The notes beneath the pieces are model-generated. The model did no database searches, was not told where the DNA came from, and worked only from the letters and a program-made list of their open reading frames with translations. The position numbers and the translations under genes are program-made. 54,463 nucleotides of DNA from a virus. The stretch spans positions 1-54,463 of the IMG/VR virus record IMGVR_UViG_3300037419_001463; one strand, written 5' to 3'. Positions 10,090-54,463 of the stretch are shown piece after piece; position 1 is the first letter of the stretch; each line of letters starts with the position of its first letter.

Positions 10090-10130
10090 GAACGGGCGGA
10101 GCCGAGATGGGAACTCGGCCCCGCCCGTTC
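10090..10130 (-). terminator. strong intergenic hairpin (17-bp stem with 1 mismatch, 7-nt loop), no U-tract
   Basis: Arms GAACGGGCGGAGCCGAG and CTCGGCCCCGCCCGTTC, lying between the stop at 10138 and the start at 10067. Confidence 0.4.
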
Positions 10131-10137
10131 TGGTGTC

Positions 10138-10272: not shown

Positions 10273-10340
10273 CAGCCCTCCTTCCTTTCCCGAGGCAACG
10301 GCAGGGTGCCGAAGCCCTCCCCCGGGTCTCGGGTCGGAAG

Positions 10341-12797: not shown

Positions 12798-12823
12798 TTT
12801 CTGTTGGTGTGGTGGTGGAGAGA

Positions 12824-13580: not shown

Positions 13581-13660
13581 TCTGTGTTCCCTTCTCGAAC
13601 ACGTGGATCCAGCCGGCGACCTTGTGTAGTGGTCGCCGGCTGGATCTGTGAGAGGTATGA

Positions 13661-15802: not shown

Positions 15803-15813
15803 CTGCCCTCCCT

Positions 15814-16903: not shown

Positions 16904-16940
16904 GGAGCGTCTTCTTTCTCTGGTGGAGTTGCGTCCTGTC

Positions 16941-17016
16941 CTCCCCGCTTGGGGAGGCCCGGCCCACTCGGACGCATGAGTGGGCCGGGCCGGTCTTGCA
17001 CGGGCGTGCTAGGCCC
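16941..17016 (-). other. three consecutive intergenic hairpins, the last with a CTAGCAC loop
   Basis: 16941..16956 is CTCCCC/GGGGAG. 16956..16991 has a 14-bp stem. 17002..17016 is GGGC-CTAGCAC-GCCC in minus sense. Confidence 0.6.
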
Positions 17017-17019
17017 TGG

Positions 17020-17712: not shown

Positions 17713-17768
17713 AGGGGTGACCCCTTTCTGTTGGTGGAGAGTGCTGAAAATTTTTTCTGCTATCCCGG

Positions 17769-17805
17769 GTGTGGCCCCGCCTGCTTCCACCAGGCAGGGC
17801 CACAC
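17769..17805 (-). terminator. intergenic hairpin immediately after the vWA gene stop
   Basis: Arms GTGTGGCCC and GGGCCACAC plus an inner 5/6 stem, followed in minus sense by an A6T4 tract. Confidence 0.4.
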
Positions 17806-17807
17806 GA

Positions 17808-18794
17808 TCAGGACATGACGTAGTAGCTGCTGCCGATGAGCAGCGGCTGCACGTCAGCGGCCAACTGCCCGACGCACTGCGCCAGGAAGGTCGGCTTGTT
17901 GACCAGGCTGATGTCGAGCACCTGGTCGATGCGGCCGGTGCACTGCTTGAGCACACCCTTCGCCTCCGGGCTGGAGTCGTAGTCCGCGATCGTGATGACC
18001 ACGCCCCAGTCCTTCTCGAACAGCGGAGCCAGCTCCTCGTAGTGGGTGCCGCCGTACTCGCCGACCGACAGGATCGTGTCGACGTCGTAGGTCCCCGGCT
18101 CCCAGTACCGGCAGGTGTTGGACACCAGCGCGAAGTGGGCGTTGGCCTGGTAGCTGAGCGCCACCACGTCCTCGATGATGCGCTGGACGGTGCCGGCGTT
18201 GACCGACCCCGAGTCGTCCAGGATCACCAGGTTCTCCGCCTGCCTGGCGTGCGTGACCGAGGCACGGAAGTCCCCGAGCGTGGGCCGCTTGGCGTTCAGC
18301 TTCATCATGTGGCCGAACACCATCGAGCCCTGCTTGCCGGGCAGCCGGTTGAGCACGGCGTCGTTCAGCTTGGCGGCCACGTCCTTGATGGACTGGGCGA
18401 CCGTGACCTCGAGCTGCTCCCACACCTGCGGCAGGATCTCGCCGGCCGGGACCACGGCCTGCCCGGTGACGGCATCACCGAACGAGACCTCGTAGTCGTC
18501 GACGTCGACGATGTCGCAGATGTAGTCCTGCAGCTCGTTGCTGTGGTCCTGGCCCTCGGCGAACAGCGCCTCGGACAGGTCCGACTTCAGCACCTGACGG
18601 AGCAGGTCGGACAGCTGGTAGGCGTCCAGGTCGTAGACCTTGCCGAAGAACAGGATGGTCTCCGTGTCCGGCAGCAGAGCCTTGAGCGTGGCCAGGCTGA
18701 ACCTGAGCCCCGGCTTGATCTCGACCAGGTCGAGGCTGCGCTTCAGCTCAGCTGAAGACATCTTCGTTGAGGATGGCATCGAGGTTGTCGTCAT
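17808..18794 (-). CDS. von Willebrand factor A (vWA) domain protein
   Basis: MIDAS motif LVILDDSGSV (DxSxS). 328 aa. Start is ATG 18794, 18779 or 18761. Paired with the upstream AAA+ gene. Confidence 0.65.
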   Translation of the reverse strand: MTTTSMPSSTKMSSAELKRSLDLVEIKPGLRFSLATLKALLPDTETILFFGKVYDLDAYQLSDLLRQVLKSDLSEALFAEGQDHSNELQDYICDIVDVDDYEVSFGDAVTGQAVVPAGEILPQVWEQLEVTVAQSIKDVAAKLNDAVLNRLPGKQGSMVFGHMMKLNAKRPTLGDFRASVTHARQAENLVILDDSGSVNAGTVQRIIEDVVALSYQANAHFALVSNTCRYWEPGTYDVDTILSVGEYGGTHYEELAPLFEKDWGVVITIADYDSSPEAKGVLKQCTGRIDQVLDISLVNKPTFLAQCVGQLAADVQPLLIGSSYYVMS

Positions 18795-19716
18795 CCGTAG
18801 TGGTTCCCTTCTCGTTGCGGATCTCCTCCATCTCGACGAGCTGAAGGTTGAGATCCCGGTTCAGCCGCTGGACCGGGGTGAGCTTCTCGACCGGCAGCGA
18901 CTTGGCCCGGTCGAGATATGAGCCGGGCAAGGTGGCTGCCTTGCCGTCGAGCAGGAAGACGTACTGCGGCTTGCCGTCCTGCATGGCCCGGGCGTTGTTC
19001 ATCGCCAGCAGCTCCTTGAGTGCAGCCGAGTGCACGTCCCGGAGCTTGGCCTGCCCGATCAGGTTGCGGATGCTGCGGCCCTTGACCAGAGCCGGAGCAC
19101 TGGACTTGTTGGCCAGGCTGTCGAGCACGTCATACATGGGCAGCACCTCACTGGTGAGGAGCTGGTCCATCTCCATGCTGTCCCGCATCTTCGGCAGCAG
19201 GCCGAGCTCGTCGACGACGACCTGGGCCAGCTGCTTCTTGGCGCGCTTCGACTTCCGTGGATCTGGCACCGGGATGTGGTGCAGCCTGTCCTCGAGCGCC
19301 TTGTCGTAGGCGACGGTGGAGTTCGAGGCAGCCAGCATGAACACCGGTGGCAGGTCCAGACCAGCCACCGACCTGCCGGTGATGATGTCGAGCAGCCCGT
19401 TGTACACCTCCGGGAATCCCCGGAGGAACTCGTCGAAGAGGATGATGTCCTTGGGCTTGAGCTGCGTCCACGTAGTGGCGTGCAGCATCTTGAGGATCAT
19501 GTCCTCGCCCGAACCGTTAGGCATCTGAACGCCTTCGAGGTCGAGCGGGTTGAGCCTGCTCACGTTGATCACGTGCACGTTGACACCGACCAGCTTGGCC
19601 AGCTCCCGGACCACGGTGCTCTTGTTACTGCCCGGTGGACCGAACAGATGGGGCACCGGGCTCGTGACACCCGTGGCCATGGCGGTGACGTAGAGCTTGA
19701 GGATTGTCTCGAGCAT
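18748..19716 (-). CDS. MoxR/AAA_5-like AAA+ ATPase
   Basis: Walker A FGPPGSNKST and Walker B IILFDEF. 322 aa. Confidence 0.7.
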   Translation of the reverse strand: MLETILKLYVTAMATGVTSPVPHLFGPPGSNKSTVVRELAKLVGVNVHVINVSRLNPLDLEGVQMPNGSGEDMILKMLHATTWTQLKPKDIILFDEFLRGFPEVYNGLLDIITGRSVAGLDLPPVFMLAASNSTVAYDKALEDRLHHIPVPDPRKSKRAKKQLAQVVVDELGLLPKMRDSMEMDQLLTSEVLPMYDVLDSLANKSSAPALVKGRSIRNLIGQAKLRDVHSAALKELLAMNNARAMQDGKPQYVFLLDGKAATLPGSYLDRAKSLPVEKLTPVQRLNRDLNLQLVEMEEIRNEKGTTTDDDNLDAILNEDVFS

Positions 19717-19763
19717 GTGGTTCCCTTGTCTGAGTCACTTTTCTATGGTGGAGAGATGACTTG

Positions 19764-19796
19764 GAGGGCGGCACCTGTGCTAGAGGTGCCGCCCTC
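19764..19796 (-). other. 13-bp-stem hairpin with CTAGCAC loop
   Basis: GAGGGCGGCACCT-GTGCTAG-AGGTGCCGCCCTC on the plus strand. Lies between the stop at 19805 and the TCTCTCCACCA leader of the AAA+ gene. Confidence 0.6.
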
Positions 19797-19804
19797 TCTT
19801 GTTG

Positions 19805-20293
19805 TCAGGCGCCGACGGTGGGCACGCCGTCGGTGAGCACGCCGTCGAACGCCGGGTCTCCGGCCGGGCCGTCGAACGCCGGCAGCGGGGTGTCCGCCTC
19901 GAGGATCTCGAGCTGATCGTCGCCGACCCAGATCACCCGGCCGGTGCCCCGGTTCTGCTCGATGAGCCGGAGCACGATGCTGTCGTGCGTCAGCTTGACG
20001 AGCTGCTCGGGCTGGGGCGCCTGGCCCTCGACCGCCTCACGCAGCACGACGTAGCTGGCCGGGTCGGCCGGCCGCTCGAGGGTCTTGGCCAGGGTCTCCG
20101 ACGCCTGGACCAGCGGAGCGAAGAACTCCTCGACCGCGGCGTCGAACGCCTCGGCCGCCTGGTCGTAGGCCTTGTCGGCGTTGACCTCGTCCCACTGGGT
20201 GGAGTCGAGGATCGCCTGGCCCTTGTTGCCGAACACGTCGGAGCCGCCGACGAGCACGCGGTTGCCGACGAGACGGGTGGTGGTGAACGTCAT
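19805..20293 (-). CDS. hypothetical protein (162 aa)
   Basis: ORF track; preceded by the CTCCACCACAGAAAGG leader. Confidence 0.65.
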   Translation of the reverse strand: MTFTTTRLVGNRVLVGGSDVFGNKGQAILDSTQWDEVNADKAYDQAAEAFDAAVEEFFAPLVQASETLAKTLERPADPASYVVLREAVEGQAPQPEQLVKLTHDSIVLRLIEQNRGTGRVIWVGDDQLEILEADTPLPAFDGPAGDPAFDGVLTDGVPTVGA

Positions 20294-20362
20294 GGATGAC
20301 GCCTTTCTGTGGTGGAGTGGTTGATCAACCGATGAACGGTGGCGTGCGGACAGAGCGCCCTA

Positions 20363-20530
20363 CTAACGCGGGGCACCCTCTCCGTACACCGACACGGCGC
20401 CGATGACGCCGGCCTCCTTGGCCTTCCTGAACAGGCTGGCCAAGTTGGGGACAGATGCCTGTTGGATCAACGAATCCATCGTCTCATCCGGCACCGACAC
20501 TGCCCCTGCTTCTGCAGTGGTGTCGCTCAC
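20363..20530 (-). CDS. hypothetical mini-protein (55 aa)
   Basis: GTG 20530 overlaps the upstream stop (GTGA). GC3-rich. Not in the track. Confidence 0.4.
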   Translation of the reverse strand: MSDTTAEAGAVSVPDETMDSLIQQASVPNLASLFRKAKEAGVIGAVSVYGEGAPR

Positions 20531-20712
20531 GAGTGAACCCCCTGCAGTCCTGATCCCTGGTTCTCGAAGATCACCAGGTCCACGTCAACGGCGTAGCCGC
20601 TGGCCGTGGTGATGGTGATGCCTCGGCCGGTGGCCTGTGCGGCCGCCAGCTTCTGGATCACCTCGTCCCTGTCCGCCGAGGACGGGACGTCGATCACGAG
20701 CTGGAGCCTCAT
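20527..20712 (-). CDS. hypothetical protein (61 aa)
   Basis: Internal ATG 20712 preceded by GGAAGGGG, overlapping the upstream stop (ATGA). Confidence 0.5.
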   Translation of the reverse strand: MRLQLVIDVPSSADRDEVIQKLAAAQATGRGITITTASGYAVDVDLVIFENQGSGLQGVHS

Positions 20713-20831
20713 CGTCTCCGCCCCTTCCTGTCGTCCGGGTGCAACCCGTTCTTCATGAAGTCCCGCACGGCGTAGGCCAGGATCGGCCAGCCGAGCAGGA
20801 GCAGATGCCTGGCCCTGAGCGGCGGCATCAT
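20709..20831 (-). CDS. hypothetical mini-protein (40 aa, one hydrophobic helix)
   Basis: ATGA overlaps at both ends. Sequence MMPPLRARHLLLLGWPILAYAV... Confidence 0.35.
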   Translation of the reverse strand: MMPPLRARHLLLLGWPILAYAVRDFMKNGLHPDDRKGRRR

Positions 20832-20902
20832 CGTCGTGACTGCCATTCGAGCGTGGCGCAGACACCGATCAAGAAGCCGATGATGAAGACGACGCCGATC
20901 AC
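20828..20902 (-). CDS. hydrophobic micro-ORF (24 aa)
   Basis: GTG 20902 overlaps the upstream stop (GTGA). Sequence VIGVVFIIGFLIGVCATLEWQSRR. Confidence 0.3.
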   Translation of the reverse strand: MIGVVFIIGFLIGVCATLEWQSRR

Positions 20903-21702
20903 TCGAGTGCCTCCATGATCGTGTCGAGGCTGTCCTTGTAGTCGATCTTCTTGGCGACCTCGACGAGCTGGTCGATGTTGTCCAGCTCGATGTGGTCAGC
21001 GATCGCTGCGTAGAACTGGCCGAGCGTCTGCTTGTCCTGGTCGAAGTGTGTGGACAGGTAGAGCCACGCCGCCCGGTAGCCGGTGGCGAGATCGTCCTTG
21101 ACCAGGCTCATGTCGTAGCCGTACTGGTAGTACTTGGCGTACCGACCCATCTCGCGCAGCCCGTTGTACTGGCTGATGAATCCGTTGCGCCAGTTGCTCC
21201 GCTTGTTGGGCATCATCGGCAGAGCGATGGACTCCCAGCTCCCGTACTTGATGGCGTCGAGCTCTCGCTCCGGGAACAGGTACGGACGCATGTCTCGGAA
21301 CGTGTCGGTCTCGAGATCCCAGCCCACACCGAGCAGTCCGAAGTCGAACGACTCGAGCACTTCGGCCAGGCTGGTGGCAGCGTGACCTTCGGTCAGCTTG
21401 TACACCAGGTTCGTCTCGATCCCCCCCGGGCTCATGAGACGAAGGCTGTTGGTGTGCCAGTTCTTCATGCCGTACCGAAGCCAGCGCTCCCACACCCGTG
21501 AGAATCGGTCGTCCAGCTTGTAGCCCTGGTCGATCAGGTACTGACCGACCGAGATGAGGACCTGCTGCGTCGGGCAGAACAGGTCGACATCGTGGTAATC
21601 ACCGATGCCGTACGTGTCTGCTGCCACGAGGGAGCCGGCCAGGAAGACCGGCCTCCCCCGCAGCAGCGAGCGCACGTCGGCGATGACAGCCGACGTGGAC
21701 AT
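20899..21702 (-). CDS. nucleotidyltransferase-fold protein (267 aa)
   Basis: FLAGSLVAADTYGIGDYHDVDLF fits the minimal NTase signature G[GS]-x(9-13)-D-x-D. Confidence 0.5.
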   Translation of the reverse strand: MSTSAVIADVRSLLRGRPVFLAGSLVAADTYGIGDYHDVDLFCPTQQVLISVGQYLIDQGYKLDDRFSRVWERWLRYGMKNWHTNSLRLMSPGGIETNLVYKLTEGHAATSLAEVLESFDFGLLGVGWDLETDTFRDMRPYLFPERELDAIKYGSWESIALPMMPNKRSNWRNGFISQYNGLREMGRYAKYYQYGYDMSLVKDDLATGYRAAWLYLSTHFDQDKQTLGQFYAAIADHIELDNIDQLVEVAKKIDYKDSLDTIMEALE

Positions 21703-21703
21703 G

Positions 21704-21985
21704 TCAGACCGCCGCGGCCTCGTCGTCCTCGACGACGGTGAGCGAGGGCTTGGACACGGCCAGGTCCGGCGTCCGCTCGACGATGATCACGAGCTCGGCA
21801 TCGATGCCGTCGAGCTTGGTCTGGCGCTCCTCGATCTGCTCGACGAGCTTGGCCCGCTGCACGTGCAGCTCGTCGTACCGCTTGACGTCCGCCGCCCGGG
21901 CCTTGGCCTCGAGCGCGTCGAGCGTGGCCTTCGCCTTGGCGATGCGCTCCTCGGGCGTGAGCGTCCTGCGCTTGGTGTCACCCAT
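21704..21985 (-). CDS. coiled-coil protein (93 aa)
   Basis: Internal ATG 21985 preceded by the TCTCCACCATCGAAAGG leader. Heptad-like K/E/A-rich sequence. Confidence 0.55.
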   Translation of the reverse strand: MGDTKRRTLTPEERIAKAKATLDALEAKARAADVKRYDELHVQRAKLVEQIEERQTKLDGIDAELVIIVERTPDLAVSKPSLTVVEDDEAAAV

Positions 21986-22031
21986 GTCTGGGTCCTTTCG
22001 ATGGTGGAGAGGTGAAGGTATGAACTGGCAT

Positions 22032-22070
22032 CCGCCGGCCCGACTGAGTGCAAGACAGCCGGGCCGGCGG
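22032..22070 (-). other. 11-bp-stem hairpin whose 17-nt loop contains CTTGCAC
   Basis: Arms CCGCCGGCCCG and CGGGCCGGCGG. Lies between the stop at 22081 and the leader of the 21985 gene. Confidence 0.5.
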
Positions 22071-22080
22071 AGATCGTGGG

Positions 22081-22449
22081 TCAGCGGACCTCGGCCTTCG
22101 CCTTGGCGACGCTGTCGCCCCAGGTCTGGCCGCTGTCCTGCTTGCCCTGGGCTGCGCCCAGCAGCCGACGAGTCCTGCCGTCGGTCTTCAGCTGAGGGAG
22201 GTACTCGTCGAGAGACCACACCCCGATGCCCTCGAGCTCACGGATCAGCTCGAGGTCGACGCCCTTGTAGACCAGGACGTGGCCGACGATGCAACCCGGC
22301 TCGTTGCCGTGCAGGTAGAGGCACTCGTCGTGGCCGTCGGGGCCCCTGTCGTAGACGAAGTCAGCGCCCTTCTCGGCGACGGCTCGGTCGAGCAGCTCGA
22401 CCGCCTCGTCGTAGGTGAGCTCGAGGGTCTCGATGGTTGCAGTGGACAT
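22081..22449 (-). CDS. hypothetical protein (122 aa)
   Basis: ORF track; preceded by the CATCTCTCCACCATCGAAAGGG leader. Confidence 0.65.
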   Translation of the reverse strand: MSTATIETLELTYDEAVELLDRAVAEKGADFVYDRGPDGHDECLYLHGNEPGCIVGHVLVYKGVDLELIRELEGIGVWSLDEYLPQLKTDGRTRRLLGAAQGKQDSGQTWGDSVAKAKAEVR

Positions 22450-22495
22450 GCTGAATCCCTTTCGATGGTGGAGAGATGCGGGTTGCGGTCGAGTG

Positions 22496-22843
22496 CTAGT
22501 CGACCTTGAAGTTCAGGCGCCAGCTGTCGTGTGGTACCCGGGTGAACACGAACTCCCAGCTGAAGCCGAGGCAGTTGGTGTAGCTACGCACCTCCTGCTT
22601 GGTCTCGGGCATACGACCCGAGGCCGGGATCACCCGGTACTCGAGGCGAGTGCCGCGCGAACCGAGGATCTCGTTGACGTGGTAGCGGGAGAACCCCTTG
22701 TGCAGTCCCGTCAGGTGGGTCAGCGTCGGGCAGTGGCCGTCGGGCTCCGAGGCCTGGGCCTCCTTGGCCAGGCCGATGGTCGTGAGCACGACCAAGAGCA
22801 AGGCGACACCGAGGACTGCGCCTCGAGTGAGCGGGTGATTCAT
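22496..22843 (-). CDS. secreted or membrane-anchored protein (115 aa)
   Basis: N-terminal hydrophobic segment GAVLGVALLLVVLTTIGLA followed by KEAQA. Confidence 0.6.
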   Translation of the reverse strand: MNHPLTRGAVLGVALLLVVLTTIGLAKEAQASEPDGHCPTLTHLTGLHKGFSRYHVNEILGSRGTRLEYRVIPASGRMPETKQEVRSYTNCLGFSWEFVFTRVPHDSWRLNFKVD

Positions 22844-22864
22844 CAGAACTCCTTCGTTGAAGGC

Positions 22865-23095
22865 TCATGCGTCCTGGATCAGGAAGCACAGCCGTGGATG
22901 GGCCTTGCCCTTCTGCACGTAGTGCAGATCGCAGAGCGGGCAGATGCGCCAGCCCTTGGGCAGGTTGACCACCGGTGACGGTGGTGCTGGTGGATGAGAT
23001 CGACCACTCGAGATCGAGGGGTTGATCTTGGACCGGATGGCCTGCCGGTTCTTCGGAGTCGGCAGTGCGCACTCGCAGGTAGATGCGGTGATCAT
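22865..23095 (-). CDS. Cys-rich small protein (76 aa)
   Basis: ATG 23095 overlaps the upstream stop (ATGA). CEC ... CPLC pattern. Confidence 0.45.
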   Translation of the reverse strand: MITASTCECALPTPKNRQAIRSKINPSISSGRSHPPAPPSPVVNLPKGWRICPLCDLHYVQKGKAHPRLCFLIQDA

Positions 23096-23307
23096 CACTC
23101 GACTCCGAGCTCGGCGAGCTTGGCCTTGATCTTCTGTGCAGCAGGGTTGGCCATCCCCTTCCACAGGTAGACCTGCTGGTTGGTGGTGAGGTAGCGGCTG
23201 AGCGAGGACTCAGCTGCGACCCGCCGGCCGACCACGCCTGCGGCGTGACGGTGGTGGGTCTCCGAGCTGTGCCCCGCTTGACGCTCACTGGTCAGGTAGT
23301 CGTTCAT
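23095..23307 (-). CDS. hypothetical protein (70 aa)
   Basis: Internal ATG 23307 preceded by the CCTCTCCACCATCGAAGGG leader. Confidence 0.5.
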   Translation of the reverse strand: MNDYLTSERQAGHSSETHHRHAAGVVGRRVAAESSLSRYLTTNQQVYLWKGMANPAAQKIKAKLAELGVE

Positions 23308-23426
23308 CGTGCGTCCCTTCGATGGTGGAGAGGTGGCTGCGCGTCCGATGTCCCCGGTGCTAGCGGGGGCATGCAGCTGATGCCGGCCCACCCGAAGGTG
23401 GCCGGTGATGAGTCCGGTGCTACGGA

Positions 23427-23783
23427 CTAGATGTGGTTCGGACCCGCGCGCACAGGTGTGCACGGGTCGAAGACCCTGCCGTCATGAGACTCGGTCGCCA
23501 CGAGGTGGCGGACGGAGCGAGTCTCCAGAACGTGACGGACTGGTGAGGTCGGCTCGATGGCCGGTGAACTGTGGTCCAGGTGGTTGGCGACATCGTCGCC
23601 ACTCCCCCGGTCGGTGTGCTCGATGTTGGTCGACACGCACGGGACCGGCTGGTACGGTCTGACAAGCTCGGCCTTGCGCGCGAGGCGCATGTCGTCGCCG
23701 ATGCTGTAGCCGGTGGCACCCATGAAGCAGAGGGCGACAGCGATCGCTGCTAGTACAGCTAGCGCTCGCCTCCCCGCCTGCAT
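23427..23783 (-). CDS. membrane or secreted protein (118 aa)
   Basis: Internal ATG 23783. N-terminal RRALAVLAAIAVALCFMGA. The upstream part of the 193-aa track ORF looks non-coding. Confidence 0.5.
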   Translation of the reverse strand: MQAGRRALAVLAAIAVALCFMGATGYSIGDDMRLARKAELVRPYQPVPCVSTNIEHTDRGSGDDVANHLDHSSPAIEPTSPVRHVLETRSVRHLVATESHDGRVFDPCTPVRAGPNHI

Positions 23784-23901
23784 GCCGAGAGTTCTACACC
23801 CGGAGTTTGCCGTCCCCGAAAGTGGGTAGGCAGATCCATTCGAGAACCACTCGACCGGGCTACGGATCCGTAGCCCAGCCGGGTGATGTCGCTGTGTCCG
23901 A

Positions 23902-24024
23902 TCAGTGGATGATGAACCACCAGTCCAGGTCGGGCATGAGCACGGCGAGCATGAGCGCGCACACCGCCGTGCCCCAGGCCAGAATCCTGAGGGCACGGCA
24001 GTAGTCACGCTGCCACTCGTTCAC
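23902..24024 (-). CDS. hydrophobic mini-protein (40 aa)
   Basis: GTG 24024 overlaps the upstream stop (GTGA). Contains LRILAWGTAVCALMLAVLM. Confidence 0.35.
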   Translation of the reverse strand: MNEWQRDYCRALRILAWGTAVCALMLAVLMPDLDWWFIIH

Positions 24025-24371
24025 AGCTCGGGGCAGTCGGGCAGCATGGTGCCGCCGAGCACGCGCTGTGCGTGTGCCACGTTGGCGTTCTCGACCTGAC
24101 CGAGCAGGTTCTCGAGCTCGCCGGCCAGGCGCTGGTTGTATCCGACCAGGTCCTGGTTGTTGATGGTCAGCTGGCGGTTGCGGATCACCAGCCGCTGGCT
24201 GTTGTTGACCTCGAACTGCAGCATGCGCTGCAGGTTGTGCACGTCCGCGATGAGCTGGTGGTTGCGGCTCTTGGTCAGGACCAGCGAGGCCCTGGTCTTG
24301 CGCCGGTCCTCGCTCACCGTGAACAGCGAGGCGAGCAGGACAGCGATGACGAGCAGGCAGACGATGAGCAT
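24021..24371 (-). CDS. membrane-anchored coiled-coil protein (116 aa)
   Basis: Internal ATG 24371 preceded by the CATCTCTCCACCACCTGAAAGG leader. N-terminal MLIVCLLVIAVLLASLF, then a Q/N/L-rich helix. Confidence 0.6.
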   Translation of the reverse strand: MLIVCLLVIAVLLASLFTVSEDRRKTRASLVLTKSRNHQLIADVHNLQRMLQFEVNNSQRLVIRNRQLTINNQDLVGYNQRLAGELENLLGQVENANVAHAQRVLGGTMLPDCPEL

Positions 24372-24698
24372 GGCGTGCGTCCTTTCAGGTGGTGGAGAGA
24401 TGCAAAGAGCCGGCCACACTCACGAATGAATGTGACCGGCTCGGTCTGAACTCTGAAGCCCACACACCTTGGTGGCCCCTTACTCCTCCGGAGAGGAGCC
24501 ACCAGGCGTGGGCGTTATCTCTTGGATACTCCCTTAGAAGCTACTTCTTTTCACTCCCTTGGTTTCCCAATTCCCCAAAGAGTTTCTTCTCTTGGGATCT
24601 ATGCGTAGATCTGGCGCAAGCGTGCGCCGCACCGCAACGGCGGTGGTCGACAGCGTCGACTGAGTGAACCCGAACCAACCGAGTCCACTCCCCCACTG

Positions 24699-24971
24699 TT
24701 ACACGTGTGACTGACCAGGATCGGGAAGATCCTCCAGCCTGAAGGGCTTCGGCTGGAACTGACGCAGCAGCTCCTCACCTTCGGCGAGGCGACGCTGGTG
24801 CTCGTGCCGCTGCCGGCTGAGGCCGAGCTCGTGCTCGAGCATCAGGTCAACGGCGCGACCTACCAGCCAGGAACGGCTGCGGTCCTGCAGCTGCCGCAGG
24901 TCATCGAGACCGCGGAGCTGGAACTCGTCCAAGCGGACCGAGGTGGGTAAGGCGGGCTTGCGCTGGGTCAT
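24699..24971 (-). CDS. ribbon-helix-helix (CopG/Arc/MetJ-type) DNA-binding regulator
   Basis: TSVRLDEFQLRGLDDL...RSWLVGRAV reads as a beta strand plus two helices. ATG 24971, or 24992. First gene of the minus arm, next to the repeat array. Confidence 0.55.
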   Translation of the reverse strand: MTQRKPALPTSVRLDEFQLRGLDDLRQLQDRSRSWLVGRAVDLMLEHELGLSRQRHEHQRRLAEGEELLRQFQPKPFRLEDLPDPGQSHV

Positions 24972-24991
24972 GTCTGCGTCCTCCGGTGCCA

Positions 24992-25357
24992 ATAGTCACC
25001 TGACGTGAGGGTGACTACGTTCGACTACATCGTAGTCACCAGGTCCGACAGTGGCATCTGCCCAGGTCAGAGCGGGTGTAGCGGTAAAGACGACCGCCCG
25101 AATGGTTGTCGATCACAACCATGTAGTCACCCTGTAGTCACCCCCCAGGTGACTACATGTTTCCGCAGGTCAGAGGCGGTTTTCCGGTGATGTAGTCACC
25201 TAGTCACCCCCAAGAATTGGGACGAAGGGTCAAGAAGAGTTACGAAGTTCAGGGTGACTACGTGACTACAACGGGAAAAAAGGGCCTCTGACCTGGGCAA
25301 ACATGTAGTCACCCCGGGGGTGACTACGGGGGTGACTACCGGCCCGAGGGTGACTAC
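24992..25357. repeat. array of about 15 copies of GTAGTCACC / GGTGACTAC, including two inverted ~55-bp composite elements
   Basis: Forward copies start at 24992 (variant), 25032, 25123, 25134, 25192, 25201 and 25305. Reverse copies start at 25010, 25148, 25253, 25262, 25319, 25331 and 25349. Composite units lie at 25123..25177 (+) and 25284..25339 (-). Confidence 0.9.
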
Positions 25358-25547
25358 ACCCGCGTGGTCGGGAGGATGGACTCCTCCCGGCGACACCCAC
25401 TCCCCTGTCACTCGAGACCCCGTGACCAATGAGACGGTGTCTCTCGTGACCGCCACCGACAACTGGCAGTTGTCAGAAGATGAGCTCTCCCGGCCGCGCA
25501 GGCCTCGACCGGGTCGGAGGCCCAGGCGCTACCGGGAAAGCGACGAG

Positions 25548-25802
25548 ATGGCCGGCATGGTGCGCCGCGTGACCAGAGCCATGGTCAGGCGCGCAGCAGC
25601 CGGAGATCTCCATGCACTCACAGCTCTGAGGCAGATGCGTGAGTACGTGGACCAGGCGACGAGGGCTGCAGCTCAAGAGCTGCACGACCCCATCGAGTGG
25701 TCGGGTGGTTACAGCTGGACGGTGATAGCCCAGGAGCTGGGCATCAGCCGGCAAGCGGCACGCCAGCAGTTCGGACTCACCAAGTCTGACGAGTCAGACT
25801 GA
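25548..25802 (+). CDS. helix-turn-helix DNA-binding protein (84 aa; start may lie further upstream)
   Basis: HTH SWTVIAQELGISRQAARQQFG. ATG 25548 lies 8 nt after GGAAAG. The N-terminal part of track ORF 25320.. is a translation of the GTGACTAC repeats (VTT...) and is not credible as coding. Confidence 0.55.
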   Translation: MAGMVRRVTRAMVRRAAAGDLHALTALRQMREYVDQATRAAAQELHDPIEWSGGYSWTVIAQELGISRQAARQQFGLTKSDESD

Positions 25803-25988
25803 TCACCGCGCTACCGCTTGGACAGCCGAGTCATAGAATCCGGCAACTCCAAAAGAAACTGCATGCGTACGCACACCTTGTCGTATGACGATCGGCCGCT
25901 CAGTATCCTGAGCGCAAGCGTCACGCGACTAGGCGAACGTGTTCATGCCAGCTGTTGTGTCAGCGTCATCACTGCGTGCACATGCACT

Positions 25989-26024
25989 AAAAAAGAGTTG
26001 CCTCCCGGCTGTTAACCGAGAGGC
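25989..26024 (-). terminator. rho-independent terminator of the orphan minus-strand gene
   Basis: Stem GCCTCCCGG/CCGAGAGGC (1 mismatch) at 26000..26024. A6 at 25989..25994 on the plus strand gives a U-tract in minus sense. Confidence 0.65.
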
Positions 26025-26030
26025 ATCTCC

Positions 26031-26273
26031 TCACGCTGCGGCGTACTTGTTCAGCATCCGGCGGTAGGCCTCGACCACGACTCCGTCGTTGTCGTTGTCC
26101 TTCGCCTTGGCGATGAGCTGCTCGAGCAGCTGCATCGTCTTGATGCGTTCCTGGTCCAGGTCCAGGTCCGCTCGTGCCACCTGCTGGTTGGCGTACTGCT
26201 TCACGACGCCGTTCATCGGGTCAAGCCCTGCGATCATGCTCTGCGTGATTGCGTCAGCAAACGGAGATGCCAT
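26031..26273 (-). CDS. hypothetical helical protein (80 aa), orphan minus-strand gene inside the plus arm
   Basis: Internal ATG 26273 lies 7 nt after GGAAGGA. Has its own terminator. The upstream part of the 162-aa track ORF runs through AT-rich non-coding DNA. Confidence 0.6.
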   Translation of the reverse strand: MASPFADAITQSMIAGLDPMNGVVKQYANQQVARADLDLDQERIKTMQLLEQLIAKAKDNDNDGVVVEAYRRMLNKYAAA

Positions 26274-26280
26274 TGGTGCG

Positions 26281-26470
26281 TCCTTCCATAGATGGGAATT
26301 CCAAAAAGTCAATCGAAACAAACGAAACAGGTTTCTAATTTGCATAGATGGTAATTGGATACCTAATACCATATATACATATATAGGGGGTATAGATTGT
26401 TTTGTTTGTTTCTTTTGTATATGTTCCAACCTCACTGAAAAGTTTTCTACATTCGTGACATCCGAAGCAT
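26281..26470. promoter_or_regulatory. AT-rich island with direct and inverted repeats (divergent promoter region and/or replication origin candidate)
   Basis: Sharp compositional drop relative to the flanks. CATAGATGG[G/T]AATT at 26287 and 26343, with ATAGATTG at 26392. GAAACAAACGAAACA (26315) is inverted against TGTTTTGTTTGTTTC (26398). An (AT)n tract lies at 26371..26385. Confidence 0.6.
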
Positions 26471-26752
26471 TCGATGCACGAGGTGGCCGGGTTCGGCCCC
26501 GACTTCGCCCTCGTGACACCCGCTACGGGCTGACTCCCCCGCTCCCCCGGTCTCCGGCGGTCTCCCGCCGCCACAGCCTCCTCGCTGGGTCGTAGGTCGG
26601 CGCAGGGCTCGAAGGCCGTCAGGGCCCGATTCCCGACAATCGCCAGTTGTCAGCCGGGCTAGGTAGAGGCCCGATCTACACCTACCCTTGCTGTTCAGCA
26701 GCCCCGATCGGCGGCCGCGCCTCATACGGTCACTCGATCAGGAGGCGGCGGC

Positions 26753-29700
26753 GTGCCGGAGAAGGACCAGCTCGGTCAGTCGAACCTCGGGCAGCTCGCC
26801 CAGCAGCAGAACCAGCCGGCTGCGCCCGAAGGTCTGCACCAGGCGGCAGGGGCCGCCGAGGGCGTGGTCCGTGGCAACCCGGCCCTGGCACAGTCGAGGC
26901 TCGGGCAGCTCGCCGCCGACGAGGGATATCTCCCGGTCGCGCAGTCCTGGTACACCGGCGCCAACCAGGAGGGGATCCGCAACGGCTGGGACACCGACTT
27001 CTGGAACCGGGCCATGGAGCAGAACACCCGGCTCGGCGAAGAGGGTCTGCTGCACTACCAGTTCGAGCAGCCCGACGCCACCGGCGTGGTGACCTGGGAC
27101 CACGACTCGGCCGACGGCCGGCACACCTACCACTTCGGCGACGTGTACGACAACGGCGTCAAGCAGGGCAACGTCTTCGACCAGTTCGACGAGGACACGG
27201 CCAACCTGATGATGGCCGACATCCTGTTCCCGAAGGAGGACAAGGCCCGGCTGTTCGAGCAGGTCGAGGTCGACCCCCAGACCGGGAAGATCACCGACAC
27301 CTCCGCGCTGGCCGCGGCCGTCCAGGCCAAGCGGCAGCAGAACAACACCGACATCCCGAAGGCCGCGGAGGCCGCCGACTTCAACGCCGACGTCGCGGCC
27401 CGGGCCGAGGACTTCCGCGAGGGCCACGTCGACGAGGCGATCACCGCCGGGGGAGCGGCCGGTGGTGCCGCGCTCGGTGCGGGCATCGGTACCTTCGTCG
27501 CACCCGGTATCGGTACCGCGATCGGTGCCGGCGTCGGTGCCGCGATCGGTGGGCTCGGCGCCCACCTGAACGAGGACGCGCTGGTCGAGCAGGCCGCCCG
27601 TGCCTACGAGATCACCGCGATGAGCGACCGGGAGAACGGCACCGGTGCCGCGATCGCCACCGGGCTGCAGCAGTGGGCCGGGTTCGGCGGGAAGCTGATC
27701 TCCCCGCTGTCGAACACCGTGCAGGGCATCGACGACGCCGCCCAGGGCAAGATCGGCGACGGGGTCTCCGAGTTCTACCGGCTCGACGAGCAGGGCCACT
27801 CGGTGGTCCCGAAGTGGGTGAAGGTCGCCGACGTCGGGGCCAGCATCGGCGACGCCGCGCTGCAGTTCGCTACCCCGATCGGCCGTGGTCTCTACACCGC
27901 CCAGATGTCCGGGGTCATCACCGGCGAGGTGGGCGAGCTCGCGCTGACCGGCGGCAAGTCCTTCGACTACACCCGCGGCGGCTTCGACTCGATCTTCACC
28001 GACGATGAGGGCAACTTCTCCCCGACCCAGGCGCTGGCCGGGATCGGCAAGGTCACCATCGACGCGGTCCAGCTGGGCATGGCCCGGGGCCTGATGAGCA
28101 AGGGCCAGTACGCGCTGGCCGCGGTGGGGGAGAAGCAGGTCGGGGGAGCGGGCACGGGGCTGCTCTCCAGGTTCACCCGACGGATCTCCGGCGGCACCGC
28201 CAAGGAGAACACCGCCGAGCTGGCCGGCTTCCGGTTCACCCTGAACGAGGCAGGCGAGGCCACCGGCCGCCGGGCCACGCTGTCGCTGCTGGCCCCGTCC
28301 GAGTCGCTGCAGGCGCTGAGCGCCCGGGTGCTGGCGATGCGCACCTCGGCCAAGAAGGCCGGCGCCCTGTCGGCCGACGACTTCTACAAGGCGGCCAAGC
28401 AGCTCTCCGCCGGCGAGAAGCGGTGGACCACCGCGCTGGTCACCGGCATGGGGGAGGGCTACGAGGAAGCGGTCCAGGCCGTGCTCGACCCGTACTCCCA
28501 CGACGCCGCGATCTCGATGGGCGACATCGGCAACAGCGCGCTGTACGGCTTCGCCGGCGGTGTCGGCATGGGCGCCGGTGTCGGGATCCGGATGCCGAGC
28601 TCGGCCGACAAGCTCTACGCGATGGCCGCCACCGGCCACCGGCTGCTGACCGGGGGAGAGGAGCTCACCCGCTCGGAGTTCGACCGGCTCCCGGAGGTCG
28701 AGCAGCGGGCCCGGGCCTCCCTGTCCGGGATGGCTAAGGCCACCGCCGACGCGGCCTACACCAAGTTCGTGGAGGACCAGAGCGCCACCCGGACCAAGTC
28801 GGTGGCCGCCATCCACAAGCTGGCCGACGCGATCCAGACCCAGCTCACCTCGAGCCTGGCCACCGCGAACCCGCGGCTCAACGGCGCGTTCGTGATCTCC
28901 CAGCTCGAGGACGCCGGCCGGGTCGACGCCGACGGCAACCTGCTGCCCGGCTACATCCCGGCCGACGGTGTCGGGGCCTCCGCGTTCCAGACCGTGGCGA
29001 ACATGGTCAACCACATGCGCGGGGTCTCGGTCCAGCTCGAGCAGCTGCGGCGGGACCTGGAGCTGGCGACCGAGGCGGCTGCGGCCGACCCGAACAACGT
29101 CGAGCTCACCAACGAGGCGGTCCGGCTGCAGGGCCAGGTCGCGTTCACCGAGTCGGTGCTCGAGCTCGGCCGCAAGCTCAACGAGGACCTCGAGGCCCGG
29201 ATCCACCGGATGTACTTCGACCCGGTCACCGGCGTCCAGCCGAGCCCGGCCGACATCGAGGCCGAGGCCGAGTCGATCAACGCGGTGCTCCGCGACCTGT
29301 TCCACCAGCGCCTCGACCTCGCCCCGGACGGCCAGCCGCTGACCGACCAGGAGAAGCTGGCGCTGGCCCACGCGGTCGGGATGGTCTTCACCCGGGACCC
29401 GCAAGATCAGGCCGGCTCCTACCAGCTGCTGGTCCCGCAGATCAGCGCCAAGCTGACCGCGGCGAACTCCAACGACTTCCTCCAGATCAGCGCGAGCATC
29501 CGGCCGGCGCTGACCGCCGACCACGACGGCGACAAGATCCGCCCGCTCAACGAGCTGATCCTCGACGACCAGGCCTACACCGCCGCCCGGTCCGGTGCGT
29601 TCTTCCTGGGCGCCGGCACCAGCGTCAACGTCGGCACCCCGAAGTACGAGAAGTGGATCCTGGAGTACCTGGGCCAGGCGGCCGGCGGCGCCAACCAGGC

Positions 29701-32700
29701 GCTGGCCAACTTCGCCGAGGGCACCATCCTCTCGATCAGCGACGCGATCCGCCGCCGCTACGACGGGGTCATCGACACCGCCGTGCTCGACAAGGTGCTC
29801 GACCCGTTCGTCGACGCGGCCAAGGCCGGCTCGGACAACGCCCGCGAGATCCTGCTGGATGGTCTCGCGCGTGAGGCCGGCGGCCAGATCACCGAGTTCT
29901 CCCGTGGTCACCTGTCCAACGAGTGGCTCTGGCTGGACCAGCTGATCCGGGCCAGCCTGGACGCCTTCCAGGAGGGCTTCGCCGCGCACAGCCCGGACAT
30001 CGGCCCGGTCCCGAACACCGACGTCGTGCTGCCGAACAAGCAGTCGGTCGACGTGCAGGACCGCAAGGCCGACCGGGCCGCAGTCACCGGCGCCACGGTC
30101 GGGCTGCTGCTCACCGGCGACGCGCCGTTCCGGCAGTCCCAGAAGCTGCACTACTCCGCGCTGGTCGCCGCGGTGGTCTCGGCCGAGGAGGCCGGCTCCC
30201 GCGAGCAGCTGTTCGCGCTAGCCCAGCTCTACGAGGCGCTCGGCCAGGGGCTGGCCACCACCGAGCTCGACGCCGTGCGCGCCAAGGACGACATCACCGC
30301 CAGGGTCTACGCCAGGCTCGACCGAATCGCACGAGACGCAGTAGAGCTGGATCCGGGTCTGAACCGGCATGAGGCCCTGGCGGTGGTGGCGAACCTGCGG
30401 GTGGCTGACATCGACGTCGCCACCGACGGCACCATCACCCCGAACGGCCGGGAGATCTCCCTGGCCCAGCTGCTGCTGCGCCAGTCGCTGGCCCAGTGGC
30501 GCCGCGAGGTCGACGAGGTCTTCGACGCCAGCCCGGAGATGCAGTCGAAGTACCACCGGATCAAGTCGATGACCAACGCCGACGGCCAGGGCCGCAAGGG
30601 TAGCCGGGTCAACGCCAGCCGCGCGTTCATCGAGGTGATCGGCGCCCAGCAGCTGTTCACCCTGCTCGGCGACGACGCCCTGGTCTTCGGCCCGCACCTG
30701 ACCGTCGAGCAGTTCCTGCGCTCCTACGTGGCCATGGACGAGCACGGCCGGCGGGCCACCGACCGCAAGCTGAAGGGGGAGGCCGCCTACCTCGAGGGCG
30801 ACCGGACCCAGCACCACAACCCGCCGTACGACCTGGACGAGGTCACCAACGGGGAGATCTCCGGGTTCCGTGCCGTGGTCGACGCGATCCTGGCGGTCGG
30901 CCACAACCGCATCACTATCGACGAGTCGGCCACCTCCGACAAGGACGTGTCCAAGCCGCACCTGCACGGCGAGCTGGCCGAGCGCAGCTACACCACCGGC
31001 GACCAGCTGCGTGACGCGGTCGCCCGGATCCAGCAGGCGATGCGGGAGTTCACCGGGCTGACCGGCCGCAAGGACGGCGAGCTGACCACCGAGATGGTCG
31101 AGCGGCTGTTCAAGGACAACCCCGACTTCGAGCGGCTGGCGCTGAACCTGATCCCCACCGCCAGCGCCAACGCGGTGATCTTCCGCCGCGAGGACGGCAC
31201 CGTCGACCTGGCGAACTGGTTCTACAAGACCTTCACCCTGGACCCGGCCGAGGCCGAGGTGCACGTGTGGCGCAACGTGCTGTTCGCGCAGCTGCGGGCC
31301 GCCGGCGTGAACTTCAACGAGGAGGAGGTCAACGAGGGCGACGCCGGCCGGAAGATGGCCAAGCTCGACCGGCGTACGCACCGGCTGATCCAGCGCCTGG
31401 CGCTCACCCCGGACGGCGGGCTGCTGCTGCGGCAGCTCTTCGACCAGATCGAGTCCGCCAAGTCCATGGAAGGGCTGATGCGCTGGATCAACACCACGCC
31501 CGGCATCCGGGGCGAGCAGGCACCGCTGACCGCCTGGGTCGACGACGTCGCCGACTTCGACGCCGACAAGGCCGAGGGCGGCTGGACCAAGAAGCTGTCC
31601 GGCTCCGAGCTGCGCGAGGCGATCTCCGCCCTGCAGCGCGGCGCCCAGAACCTGGTCGACGACCTGGTCGAGGAGCGGGCCGCGTTCAAGCGCGACACCC
31701 GGGTGATCAACGCGATCGAGAAGGATCTGAAGAACGGCGGCGGCAAGACGCTGTCCCTGCTCGAGACCGCGATCGACGAGGCCGCCGAGCGCGTGGTCGG
31801 GCTGGGCCCGTCGGCGATGATCTACCAGACCGTGGCCGCGGCCCGGGGCTTCTACCCGCAGGCGCACACCAAGGGCAAGAACCCCGACTACCTGGACCCG
31901 GCGGCCGCCCTCGAGGCACACCGGGACGCCTTCGGCTACGTCACCAACTTCGAGCGGGTGATGGCCGCGCTGACCAGCGTCAACCTGGACGCGGTTTCCG
32001 GCAACATGTCCGAGCTGGCCAAGGACAACCTGCGCACCATGGACGACTTCGGCCGGCCGGTGGAGTGGCAGAAGCCCACCGCCGAGCAGTGGCTGGAGCT
32101 GTTCAAGAACCCCGACACCCGGCCGATGGCCCGGGCGATCCTGTTCCCGCAGGCGATGGAGCGCGACTTCGACGGCCAGACCCGGCCCAAGCTGCTGGTC
32201 GGCAAGGACCTGAAGGCGCTGCTCGAGGGCACCAGCCACAAGGACCTGTTCCCCAAGCACGGCCGACTGGACCGGGACCCGGCGCTGAAGTACGTGGCCG
32301 CGCTGGAGGCCGAGGCCCGCAAGCACGGCGGCCACTTCTCGGTGCAGCGGCTGGCCAACGACATCGTCATCGCCCGCACCTCAGCGGCCGACCACGTGCT
32401 GTCGACGGCCGAGCTGGAGAAGATGACGGTCGAGGCGTACCGCCAGATCGCCGAGCTCTTCCAGGCCACCGCCTCGATCGCCGCGGCCGCGCACACCCCG
32501 GGCACCGACCCGCTGGCCGAGATGCGCACCAAGGTCCGGCAGGCCCAGCGCACGGCCGCCGTCGCCCGCCGGGTCGGGATGGCCGGCACCGCGGCCGACG
32601 CCGAGCTCGGGAAGCAGACCTTCGAGATCCTGGTCCGTGACCGGGAGGCCGAGCTCGAGGCCGAGCGCCGGCTGCTGCTGGACGCCTCCGCGGCCGCCGA

Positions 32701-53636: not shown

Positions 53637-53819
53637 AGCCCGTTGTAGGGTCCTCGAGCTAAGCTCTAGTAAGACCACTAAAACAGTCCCGATAACATAC
53701 CTTATGTCAAGTCGGGGCTGTCACTTCTCCCCTGGGCTGGACATCGCCGTTCCAGCAGCTACGGTCGGTACAACTCATTCACTCATGCGGATCGCGTTCC
53801 CTACCGACCTAGGAACACC

Positions 53820-54463
53820 ATGAGTCAGAGTGAGAAGTCGGGTTACTTCCAGGCGCTGAAGGCAGCCGGGGTCACCTTCGACAGGCACTACCGCGAGTAC
53901 ACGACCGCCGAGCTCAAGGCGGCCTACGACCGGCTCCCGTCGCAGCCGCAGCTGCCGACCCCGCCCTCCGACGTCGTCCGTACCGACGCCGACGGCCTGG
54001 TCCCGCCCGCTCCGGGCGTCGTGCCCGAGCCGGCCTTCGACCCGGCCGCCCTGGCCGAGGCATACGCCGGTCTCGTCCAGCCTGAAGGCCCGGCCGTCGC
54101 CCGACCCGAGCCGTACCCCGTGTTCGAGGAGCCCGCTCCCCCGCCGCTCCCGGTCCGTGCGGCCGACCCGAACGAGATGGCCGGCGCCCGGCTGAACACC
54201 AAGGACGCCGACGAGCCGATCCGCCGTGACGAGCACGGCCGCCTCTGGTACCAGGAGGAGGTCCGCAAGCCGGGCTACCCCAAGCCCCGCGGCCGCCGCG
54301 TGCTGACCTACACCGACACCGGCACCGAGACCCGGACCCTGGTCACCGGCAAGGAGAACAACGGCTCCGACGTCGTCGAGACCTTCGAGGTCGCCGGCAC
54401 CGGGCCGGGCCGCACCGCCCAGGTGAAGATCACGCTGCCGTCCTACCAGGTCGGGATCTACAG
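53820..54463 (+). CDS. 5-prime part of the ~285-aa hypothetical protein gene that continues at 128..341 after circularisation
   Basis: ATG 53820. Open to the window end. Pro-rich linker, then RKPGYPKPRGRRVLTY... The last 127 nt duplicate the window start. Confidence 0.7.
   Translation, partial: MSQSEKSGYFQALKAAGVTFDRHYREYTTAELKAAYDRLPSQPQLPTPPSDVVRTDADGLVPPAPGVVPEPAFDPAALAEAYAGLVQPEGPAVARPEPYPVFEEPAPPPLPVRAADPNEMAGARLNTKDADEPIRRDEHGRLWYQEEVRKPGYPKPRGRRVLTYTDTGTETRTLVTGKENNGSDVVETFEVAGTGPGRTAQVKITLPSYQVGIY
54337..54463. repeat. second copy of the 127-bp terminal overlap
   Basis: Identical to 1..127. Confidence 0.95.

Follow-up and report, generated by a model that had tools for sequence, protein, structure and literature searches.

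The IMG/VR virus record IMGVR_UViG_3300037419_001463 was analysed over its whole length of 54,463 nucleotides (the window), with the focus on a dense repeat array at 24992-25357, located between a gene for a ribbon-helix-helix (RHH) protein and a gene for a weakly helix-turn-helix (HTH) protein. The array combines many copies of a 9-mer, GTAGTCACC, with a ~22-bp box containing the 19-mer GTTTCCGCAGGTCAGAGGC, and a twin module is present at 53393-53636. At even chances, we read the array as a host-factor-assisted operator complex on double-stranded DNA, through which the divergent early promoters and also the packaging operon would be controlled. The 9-mers look like operators for a phage-encoded sequence-specific DNA-binding protein, and the box is most likely the docking site of a conserved factor of the host, architectural or acting as a roadblock, much like an IHF site in E. 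coli.

The phage group is that of the podoviruses Burro and Araxxi, which are Microbacterium phages, and of Arthrobacter phage MissAmericana, with major capsid proteins 81-83% identical; these phages and a set of other sequences (metagenome contigs, further phages and bacterial loci), labeled with L numbers, were used for comparison.

Organisation of the two repeat modules

The 9-mer GTAGTCACC has 16 exact copies in the window against 0.24 expected, a number reached in 0/100 shuffles, and the exact copies are confined to two intergenic regions. Eleven of them are located in array 1 (25010-25357), where one-mismatch copies at 24992, 25200 and 25261 and a partial copy at 25023 bring the total to ~15 in 366 bp, the same count that an earlier note on this DNA had given for about 370 bp. 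The consensus of the array sites is (G/A)TAGTCAC(C), 8-9 bp long and present in at least 15 copies, with GTAGTCACGTAGTCACC as its tandem form; the sites are arranged as abutting tandem pairs in 8-bp register, as inverted pairs and as a proximal cluster. From left to right, array 1 contains:

24992..25040, unstranded: putative proximal operator cluster next to the RHH start, with ATAGTCACC at 24992 (+), GTAGTCACC at 25010-25018 (-), the palindrome GACTACATCGTAGTC at 25023-25037 and GTAGTCACC at 25032-25040 (+)
25055..25077, + strand: third, degenerate copy of the box, CATCTGCCCAGGTCAGAGCGGGT, in which the core CAGGTCAGAG is exact
25123..25156, + strand: left unit, an extra 9-mer (25123-25131) and the inverted pair GTAGTCACC-CCCCA-GGTGACTAC (25134-25156)
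25157..25179, + strand: left box, AT-GTTTCCGCAGGTCAGAGGC-GG, 0 mismatches
25192..25208, + strand: tandem pair GTAGTCAC/CTAGTCACC in 8-bp register, beginning 14 nt past the box
25209..25252, unstranded: central spacer of 44 bp with 47.7% GC, against 66.8% for the genome
25253..25269, - strand: inverted tandem pair GGTGACTAC/GTGACTAC
25284..25304, - strand: right box, inverted, 2 mismatches, reverse complement ATGTTTGCCCAGGTCAGAGGC
25305..25357, unstranded: right unit, an inverted pair (25305-25327) and 9-mers at 25331-25339 (-) and, outlying, 25349-25357 (-)

The two ~55-bp composite units described in the earlier note read exactly as it quoted them, and its tandem 17-mers are those at 25192-25208 and 25253-25269. 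In each unit an inverted pair is followed by GTTTCC and then by the box. The stems, of 9-12 bp with 2-5-nt loops, are made of the same 9-mer that also stands as direct repeats, which argues for protein sites in duplex DNA. The quasi-palindrome was found as well: it spans ~200 bp, with arms of 80 nt each (25130-25209 and 25252-25331) that are 83% complementary and have 42 nt between them; as single-stranded DNA, 25116-25345 forms one long hairpin of -79.1 kcal/mol against -34.0 +/- 3.6 when shuffled (z = -12.45). In relatives the equivalent spacers measure 43-52 bp, several of them palindromic with GGAAACTT...AAGTTTCC. The 19-mer is exact at 25159, 53437 and 53574 and has two mismatches at 25284, and the box totals three copies in region 1 and five genome-wide.

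The proximal cluster overlaps a -10-like TACGAT (reverse complement of 25029-25034) located ~50 nt upstream of the RHH start, and GTGACTACGAT(A/G)TAG is kept in the RHH-bearing relatives L270-L272. A promoter consensus scan of 24400-26900 gave 0 promoter-like sites, in agreement with the earlier remark that no sigma-70 -35/-10 is obvious here. Searches for tRNA and tmRNA genes (ARAGORN) and for RNA families (Rfam) gave no match reaching the gathering score, with only chance-level hits at E up to 10.

The second array, which the earlier note did not include, has five exact 9-mers and two exact boxes and sits downstream of the last late gene, whose stop is at 53381, and upstream of gene 53820, the first of the operon that ends with the terminase gene (4017-5534). 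The degenerate third box, the proximal cluster and the circularity of the assembly are likewise absent from that note. Its elements and those that follow it are:

53393-53434: 9-mers, three direct and an inverted partner
53435-53457, + strand: first box
53470-53486: tandem pair
53487-53538: spacer of 52 bp with 42% GC
53539-53555: inverted tandem pair
53572-53594, + strand: second box
53594-53610: tandem pair after the second box
53628-53636, - strand: terminal 9-mer
53688..53712, + strand: candidate remnant of a sigmaA-type promoter, GATAAC..CCTTATGTCAAG, past array 2 and ahead of gene 53820
53820..54336, + strand: gene 53820, first of the packaging operon, 285 amino acids, continuing across the junction to window positions 1-341

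A counterpart of module 2 lies upstream of the gene-53820 homologue in nine other contigs. Modules of this region-2 type (10 contigs) come right behind the final late gene's stop codon and precede the gene-53820 homologue by 16-230 nt; in several contigs they begin at most ~12 nt from the stop codon of the preceding late gene. The two boxes have the same orientation in the window and are convergent in relatives. Between module 2 and the gene there is a sigmaA-like -10, which reads TACTGT in five contigs; in L266 and the window it is GATAAC..CTTATGTCAA. The element at 53688..53712 aligns with TATAAT..CCTTATGTGC of MissAmericana and with the same element in L266. As a pattern match, ten related contigs have such a -10 beyond the edge of the module, ahead of the gene that follows. 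At the position of module 2, Burro and MissAmericana lack an array and show a plain consensus TATAAT promoter instead. The modules are thus located upstream of predicted promoters at the heads of transcription units and are not these promoters themselves.

At least for module 2, a packaging site is an alternative that we consider improbable. Repeats for the terminase small subunit would flank the cleavage region, with the host-factor site between them as in lambda cosB (R3-I1-R2), and module 1 would be a second or regulatory copy. Module 2 does lie immediately upstream of the terminase-ending operon in 10 contigs, the relatives are reported to be headful packagers with circularly permuted DNA (PMC7302621), and in cos phages of clusters F, P and M the box is located 50-110 bp from the right genome end. 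However, the gene-53820 product showed no detectable similarity to terminase small subunits and no informative family match, Burro and MissAmericana package their DNA without an array at this position, and an identical module at the head of the early arm is not expected of a pac site.

The layout of the 9-mers was compared among relatives. At the same genome position Burro and Araxxi have another k-mer, CGTTACCT, and MissAmericana has CTCGTTAC; all three share the abutting tandem pairs in 8-bp register, the 43-52-bp spacer and the inverted tandem pair. The site sequence varies with the phage lineage while layout and position stay constant. Contigs from IMG/VR and ENA with the GTAGTCACC design fall into two positional classes, the region-2 type described above and a region-1 type located beside the early arm and the giant gene (found in the window, L003, L249-L251 and L270-L272). 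Unrelated IMG/VR contigs contain the full palindromic module built with the k-mers GGACGTATC, TAGGGCAGT, GTGCCACTTT or TCCCGCG, and the order that recurs is inverted repeat, box, tandem repeats, spacer, inverted tandem repeats, inverted box and inverted repeat. The repeats and their statistics, the symmetry and this recurrence with different k-mers were observed directly. Two contigs of 48-49% GC, L264 (730-1040) and L261 (4160-4460), which share no proteins with the window, present a tandem GTAGTCA(C/T)GTAGTCAC, an AT-rich spacer and an inverted tandem, and lack the box.

Control by multiple operators, bound by the RHH or the HTH protein, had been one proposal of the earlier note. It is supported in kind, with lineage-specific 9-mers lying over TACGAT; the RHH and HTH proteins are candidate binders at most. 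Both genes flank the array in close relatives (L270-L272), and the more distant contig L003 has the same 9-mer array, with early core proteins 44-68% identical to those of the window, and neither gene. The way the 8-bp sub-sites abut, directly or inverted, is reminiscent of the DNA read by omega and other RHH repressors, which we regard as a lead. Pattern searches of IMG/VR found no relatives of the RHH and HTH proteins, and the conserved early proteins (20899-21702, 21704-21994 and 19805-20293) gave no informative Pfam, PHROG or PDB match.

A box shared across Actinomycetota

The box is pan-Actinomycetota and not phage-specific. A scan of IMG/VR for the exact 19-mer gave at least 118 viral loci with wholly unrelated flanks, and a bacterial scan, using one genome per species, gave at least 120 loci, which span Streptomyces, Nocardioides, Arthrobacter, Frankia, Corynebacterium, Bifidobacteriaceae and others. 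By blastn the box was found in 681 GenBank phage records (607 Mycobacterium, 37 Gordonia, 22 Streptomyces), mostly temperate siphoviruses, with nearly all matches in unannotated intergenic DNA. The conserved unit measures ~25 bp, G[C/T]-box-[T/C]T[G/T]; beyond it there is no conservation, and none at promoter distance. The box appears to be undescribed in the searchable literature: it is absent from publications on cluster EK, D29/L5, cluster K, Sbash, mIHF and HupB, full-text matches being unrelated primers, and no Rfam family matches it.

Its settings are varied. At P_left of cluster A phages (L5-type) the box lies between two stoperators and abuts the promoter -35; at attP of this cluster a tRNA-Gly-derived core is followed by the box and then by paired arm-type repeats. 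Faith1 likewise has it between attP core and paired arm-type repeats, flanked by GGTATCAAC repeat pairs beside the integrase gene; cluster F phages have it ~50 bp from the right genome end, and phiC31 has a single box between gp28 and attP. In bacteria it is found 1-21 nt downstream of tRNA genes, in either orientation, and directly past the stop codons of glnA and other genes bordering integrated elements. It also lies 61 nt upstream of the carD start, in the divergent carD/UbiA-prenyltransferase intergenic region of Nocardioides-like genomes (L141, L157, L173, L186, L216 and L232). The right end of Gordonia phage Bantam (L123 1490-1900) holds ~10 degenerate boxes with the core CGCAGGTCAG, in both orientations, within ~400 bp of non-coding DNA.

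Moreover, DnaA boxes flank the box in dnaA-dnaN oriC regions from three genera, represented by Isoptericola, Frankia and a third genome. The three loci are:

L132 932-950: oriC box, spaced TGTGGA-N17-box-N10-TGTGGA
L175 5120-5138: oriC box of Frankia, N21 downstream
L244 51-69: oriC box, spaced as in L132

Upstream of dnaB, four loci (L149, L153, L189 and L211) read TCCACA-N13..16-box-N26..27-TCCACA. The box is repeatedly sandwiched by sites of proteins that oligomerise on DNA, namely DnaA, integrase arm domains, the L5 repressor and the putative 9-mer binder.

These loci bring in another alternative, that the modules are replication origins in which the 9-mers would be iterons of a phage initiator, the boxes would recruit a host architectural factor and the AT-richer spacer would unwind. 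We regard it as unlikely, yet the likeliest of the alternatives considered here. The fixed spacing of the same box between DnaA boxes in chromosomal oriC speaks for it, together with spacers of 42-48% GC in a 67% GC genome, the palindromic symmetry at the point where two gene arms diverge, and iteron-like repeats that differ among related phages. On the other hand, each genome has two modules, and the second belongs to the late region, just before the packaging operon, where relatives have a plain promoter only; no initiator gene is adjacent, and the box is also found at sites that are not origins (attP, P_left, carD). GC skew was uninformative and did not locate the origin, and a 33% GC island at 26280-26450, far more AT-rich and conserved, is a better candidate for unwinding. 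The earlier note had left both an origin and a packaging site open, rightly in our view, and both are retained as alternatives.

We also determined how the box is oriented. Relative to the downstream neighbour gene 49 copies have the same and 52 the opposite orientation; relative to the upstream neighbour the numbers are 35 and 61. Both the distribution of the box and its neutrality to orientation are direct observations. Since the settings are varied and there is no orientation bias, the box is better described as a host-factor-like site than as a promoter read by an injected or other phage polymerase. Behind the box, tandem 7-mers are present in 17% of viral and 15% of genome contexts, a 3-5-fold excess over control positions (~3-6%), and begin 12-18 nt past it in 15/22 cases; 8-mers repeated on both flanks were found in 10/53 viral contexts against 0-3/53 controls.

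The promoter reading, by which face-to-face hairpin-plus-box promoters like those of coliphage 186 would serve a phage-specific, virion-injected (N4-like) or host polymerase, is highly improbable in our estimation. A hairpin followed by a ~20-bp conserved box is about the size of a promoter for a single-subunit polymerase, a giant virion-associated protein is encoded nearby, and the consensus scan gave no sigma-70-like promoter in the region. Nevertheless, the box is exact in hundreds of unrelated phages without the giant gene and at bacterial oriC, dnaB, carD and tRNA loci, has no directional bias toward downstream genes, and in module 2 changes from same-direction to convergent between window and relatives. 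A Pfam search detects no polymerase domain in the giant protein, and a published analysis of relatives saw no similarity to the N4 virion polymerase (PMC7302621). The proposal of the earlier note that these are promoters for a phage-specific or injected polymerase is not supported by this distribution. Its face-to-face arrangement is not borne out either: no -10/-35 was found at a fixed distance from the box, and in the ten related contigs the -10-like elements are outside the module. The single copy in phiC31, beside attP, likewise does not fit a multi-copy early promoter family, and for this reason membership of the box in such a family of phiC31 was rejected.

A further alternative makes the units inward-facing terminators or insulators, which would stop transcription entering the module, a tightly bound box factor acting as roadblock. 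We give it a low probability, similar to that of the packaging site. The position of module 2, so close behind the late gene, is compatible with it; there is an annotated terminator at the box in the FRAT1 record and a putative one at this place in cluster K attP, and the lone phiC31 box, at the edge of the prophage, comes after gp28 in the sense direction. An adjacent hairpin partner arm was found in 0/88 viral and 14/120 bacterial contexts among the matches listed, the 14 copies forming perfect hairpin arms with T-runs after tRNA genes. However, genes upstream of the box are more often directed away from it (61) than towards it (35), hairpins upstream of the box are not enriched relative to control, the box alone forms a stem of ~4 bp at most, the majority of copies have no partner arm, and hairpin termination does not account for the strict conservation of GCAGGTCAGAGGC. 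A hairpin terminator as the general function of the box was set aside on the partner-arm counts, the hairpin control and gene orientation.

Other candidates were set aside as well. A CRISPR-repeat mimic does not agree with the single box per 8 kb seen in 120/120 bacterial loci among the matches listed. The box is not known to fit the SigF, SigH, ECF or WhiG consensus sequences, the DnaA box, parS or dif. The box as attP core or integrase site only was rejected because a tyrosine integrase accompanies only 17/120 bacterial and 9/118 viral loci among the matches listed, and lytic phages have several boxes.

Flanking genes and nearby elements

The window is a circular assembly in which positions 1-127 and 54337-54463 are identical; with these 127 nt counted once, the whole phage genome is 54,336 bp long. 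Genes from 6849 to 24992 are transcribed leftward and include replication functions, and rightward genes extend from ~25.4 kb through the circular junction to ~7 kb. The genes flanking array 1 are:

24699..24971, - strand: RHH gene, 90 amino acids from ATG 24971 with the Shine-Dalgarno sequence GGAGGA, leading the leftward early/replication arm
25447..25802, + strand: weak-HTH gene, in an open reading frame (ORF) open from 25320, with the likely start at GTG 25447 and not at 25320

Of the two regulators named in the earlier note, the RHH protein was recovered by Pfam (RHH_1, E = 1.9e-4, passing the curated cut-off), while the HTH assignment gave weak hits only (HTH_23, E = 0.006, below cut-off; PHROG 686, E = 3.7e-4). 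RHH homologues of 73-77% identity adjoin the GTAGTCACC array in the three metagenome contigs L270-L272, which have a homologue of the weak-HTH ORF on the other side of the array; the 129-amino-acid homologue in L270 backs the GTG 25447 start.

Between the HTH gene and a small leftward gene there are two terminator-like hairpins with T-runs, at 25861-25876 and 25999-26025 (- strand), suggesting that the HTH gene is short and terminated separately. A noncoding element at 25893-25935, CGCTCAGTATCCTGAGCG plus CAAGCGTCACGCGACTAG, has the form of a hairpin with a tail and is conserved at the nucleotide level in Burro, Araxxi, MissAmericana and L003, with diverged flanks; an Rfam search gave no match for it. 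In Burro and Araxxi the small leftward gene and the conserved hairpin element are flanked by perfect 13-16-nt inverted repeats ~600 bp apart, of which a weaker counterpart is seemingly present in the window at ~25849-25858 and 26408-26417. The pairs are located at:

L120 6276-6290 and 6912-6926
L121 6900-6915 and 7529-7544

The 33% GC island at 26280-26450 lies between the leftward gene 26031-26273 and the giant gene, holds ATATACATATATAGGGGGTAT and is kept in all relatives; it is a candidate strong host promoter region or unwinding element. The giant gene (26753-40546) is a 4597-amino-acid ORF that takes up ~25% of the genome and corresponds to the giant virion-associated protein of cluster EK/Burro. 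In this podovirus group the protein has 4,400-4,600 residues and a function that is not known (PMC7302621). A profile-level search of the 4597-amino-acid protein gave no Pfam family; no structure-level search was made.

The proposed complex and its comparison with known systems

In the reading we prefer, a phage protein would occupy the 9-mers and a host factor at the boxes would bend or lock the DNA between the operator blocks. One higher-order complex would span the ~200-bp palindrome, its AT-richer centre and the proximal cluster over TACGAT, and it would set leftward expression, that is the RHH gene and the replication arm, and rightward expression of the HTH gene. The twin module at 53393-53636 would have the same part at the packaging operon and could plausibly serve as an early/late switch. 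What we infer here is the binding of proteins, the bending of the DNA and the effect on regulation. Somewhat below an even chance, and tentatively, we propose that GTTTCCGCAGGTCAGAGGC is the recognition site of a new sequence-specific, Actinomycetota-wide architectural or roadblock factor, or of a specific binding mode of HupB/mIHF, as the actinobacterial counterpart of the E. coli IHF site.

Several points weigh against this reading. The obvious candidates, mIHF/sIHF and HupB, are reported to be sequence-nonspecific and mIHF ChIP-seq was published without a motif (PMC6155035, PMC10028186), and for this reason the box factor was not assigned. The exact conservation of 19 bp is tighter than that of typical IHF sites. 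For both layers the binding protein is a postulated one. The -10 assignments are pattern matches, and any promoter in or beside module 1 is putative. The same 9-mer design occurs without any box in L257, Burro and L261/L264; as some relatives run it in this way, the box would be auxiliary. In ~12% of the bacterial contexts listed the box makes up one arm of a terminator-like hairpin with a T-run behind it, and in phiC31 and L5-type phages it follows a gene or tRNA in sense orientation, which equally fits a role in termination or insulation. Finally, repeats with a host-factor site and an AT-richer centre are also the grammar of replication origins, of lambda cosB and of SPP1 pac.

mIHF is required for L5 integration. 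To our knowledge, a defined host-factor site has so far been lacking in actinobacterial phage biology, and we know of no specific DNA site for mIHF. The box offers a concrete bait sequence for the search for actinobacterial host factors, bears on the question of which of them read att sites and origins, and could help in annotating actinobacterial mobile elements, as a landmark of their att sites, regulatory regions and origins. In Burro/cluster-EK-like podoviruses with the giant protein, the two modules indicate the places at which control of the early genes and the packaging operon would act, and they argue for host RNA polymerase plus a phage DNA-binding switch protein and against an N4-like injected polymerase. 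If our proposal is true, chromosomal origins, dnaB and carD regions, tRNA-linked elements and hundreds of phages share one DNA-organising site, which would organise DNA between bound initiators, integrases, terminases or repressors.

Among known systems, the N4 hairpin promoters and the 186 pR/pL pair are similar in that small inverted repeats stand next to a conserved sequence and two units are convergent. They differ in that the box is not phage-specific and is oriented without regard to genes, the hairpin arms are plain duplex repeat sites and no polymerase domain was found in the giant protein with Pfam. N4-type promoters belong to phages that encode the virion RNA polymerase, a virion protein with a T7-like polymerase domain; upstream of the early genes that they drive, they extrude a 5-7-bp stem with a 3-nt loop from single-stranded DNA, in contrast to the 9-12-bp stems and 2-5-nt loops found here. 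The heptad arrays of the RHH protein omega in pSM19035 share with array 1 abutting 7-9-bp sub-sites, direct and inverted, upstream of regulated genes, and here an RHH gene is adjacent; the same 9-mer arrays also exist without an RHH gene, and RHH binding to array 1 is putative. As with the stoperators and P_left of L5, a short asymmetric phage-specific site is present in many copies, although stoperators are found genome-wide in one orientation and the sites described here are concentrated in two palindromic modules.

The spread of the box over origins, att sites, packaging ends and operator regions is typical of IHF sites in E. coli, which occur in oriC, lambda attP H', cosB I1 and the Mu operator. 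The P' arm of lambda attP (C'-H'-P'1P'2P'3) and cosB (R3-I1-R2-R1) resemble the modules in having a host-factor-type site between element-specific sites, with tandem repeats at a fixed short distance, and in other elements the box takes the lambda-like position, lying close to cos ends or separating the attP core from arm-type pairs. As a lead only, GGTCAGAGGC-TTG with its upstream T-tract loosely resembles the IHF core WATCAANNNNTTR. Unlike the hosts of lambda, Actinobacteria have no IHF alpha/beta, mIHF is unrelated and reported to be non-specific, and the box is far stricter than IHF sites. With respect to the early operator of phage Mu (O1-O2-O3), array 1 has another host-factor motif and a different clade of hosts, shows dyad symmetry, contains two or three boxes, and belongs to an apparently lytic phage; nevertheless, both have many short repressor-type repeats over ~200 bp between divergent promoters, with a host architectural-factor site (IHF in Mu, between O1 and O2) embedded between operator blocks, in a higher-order complex that would form here as well.

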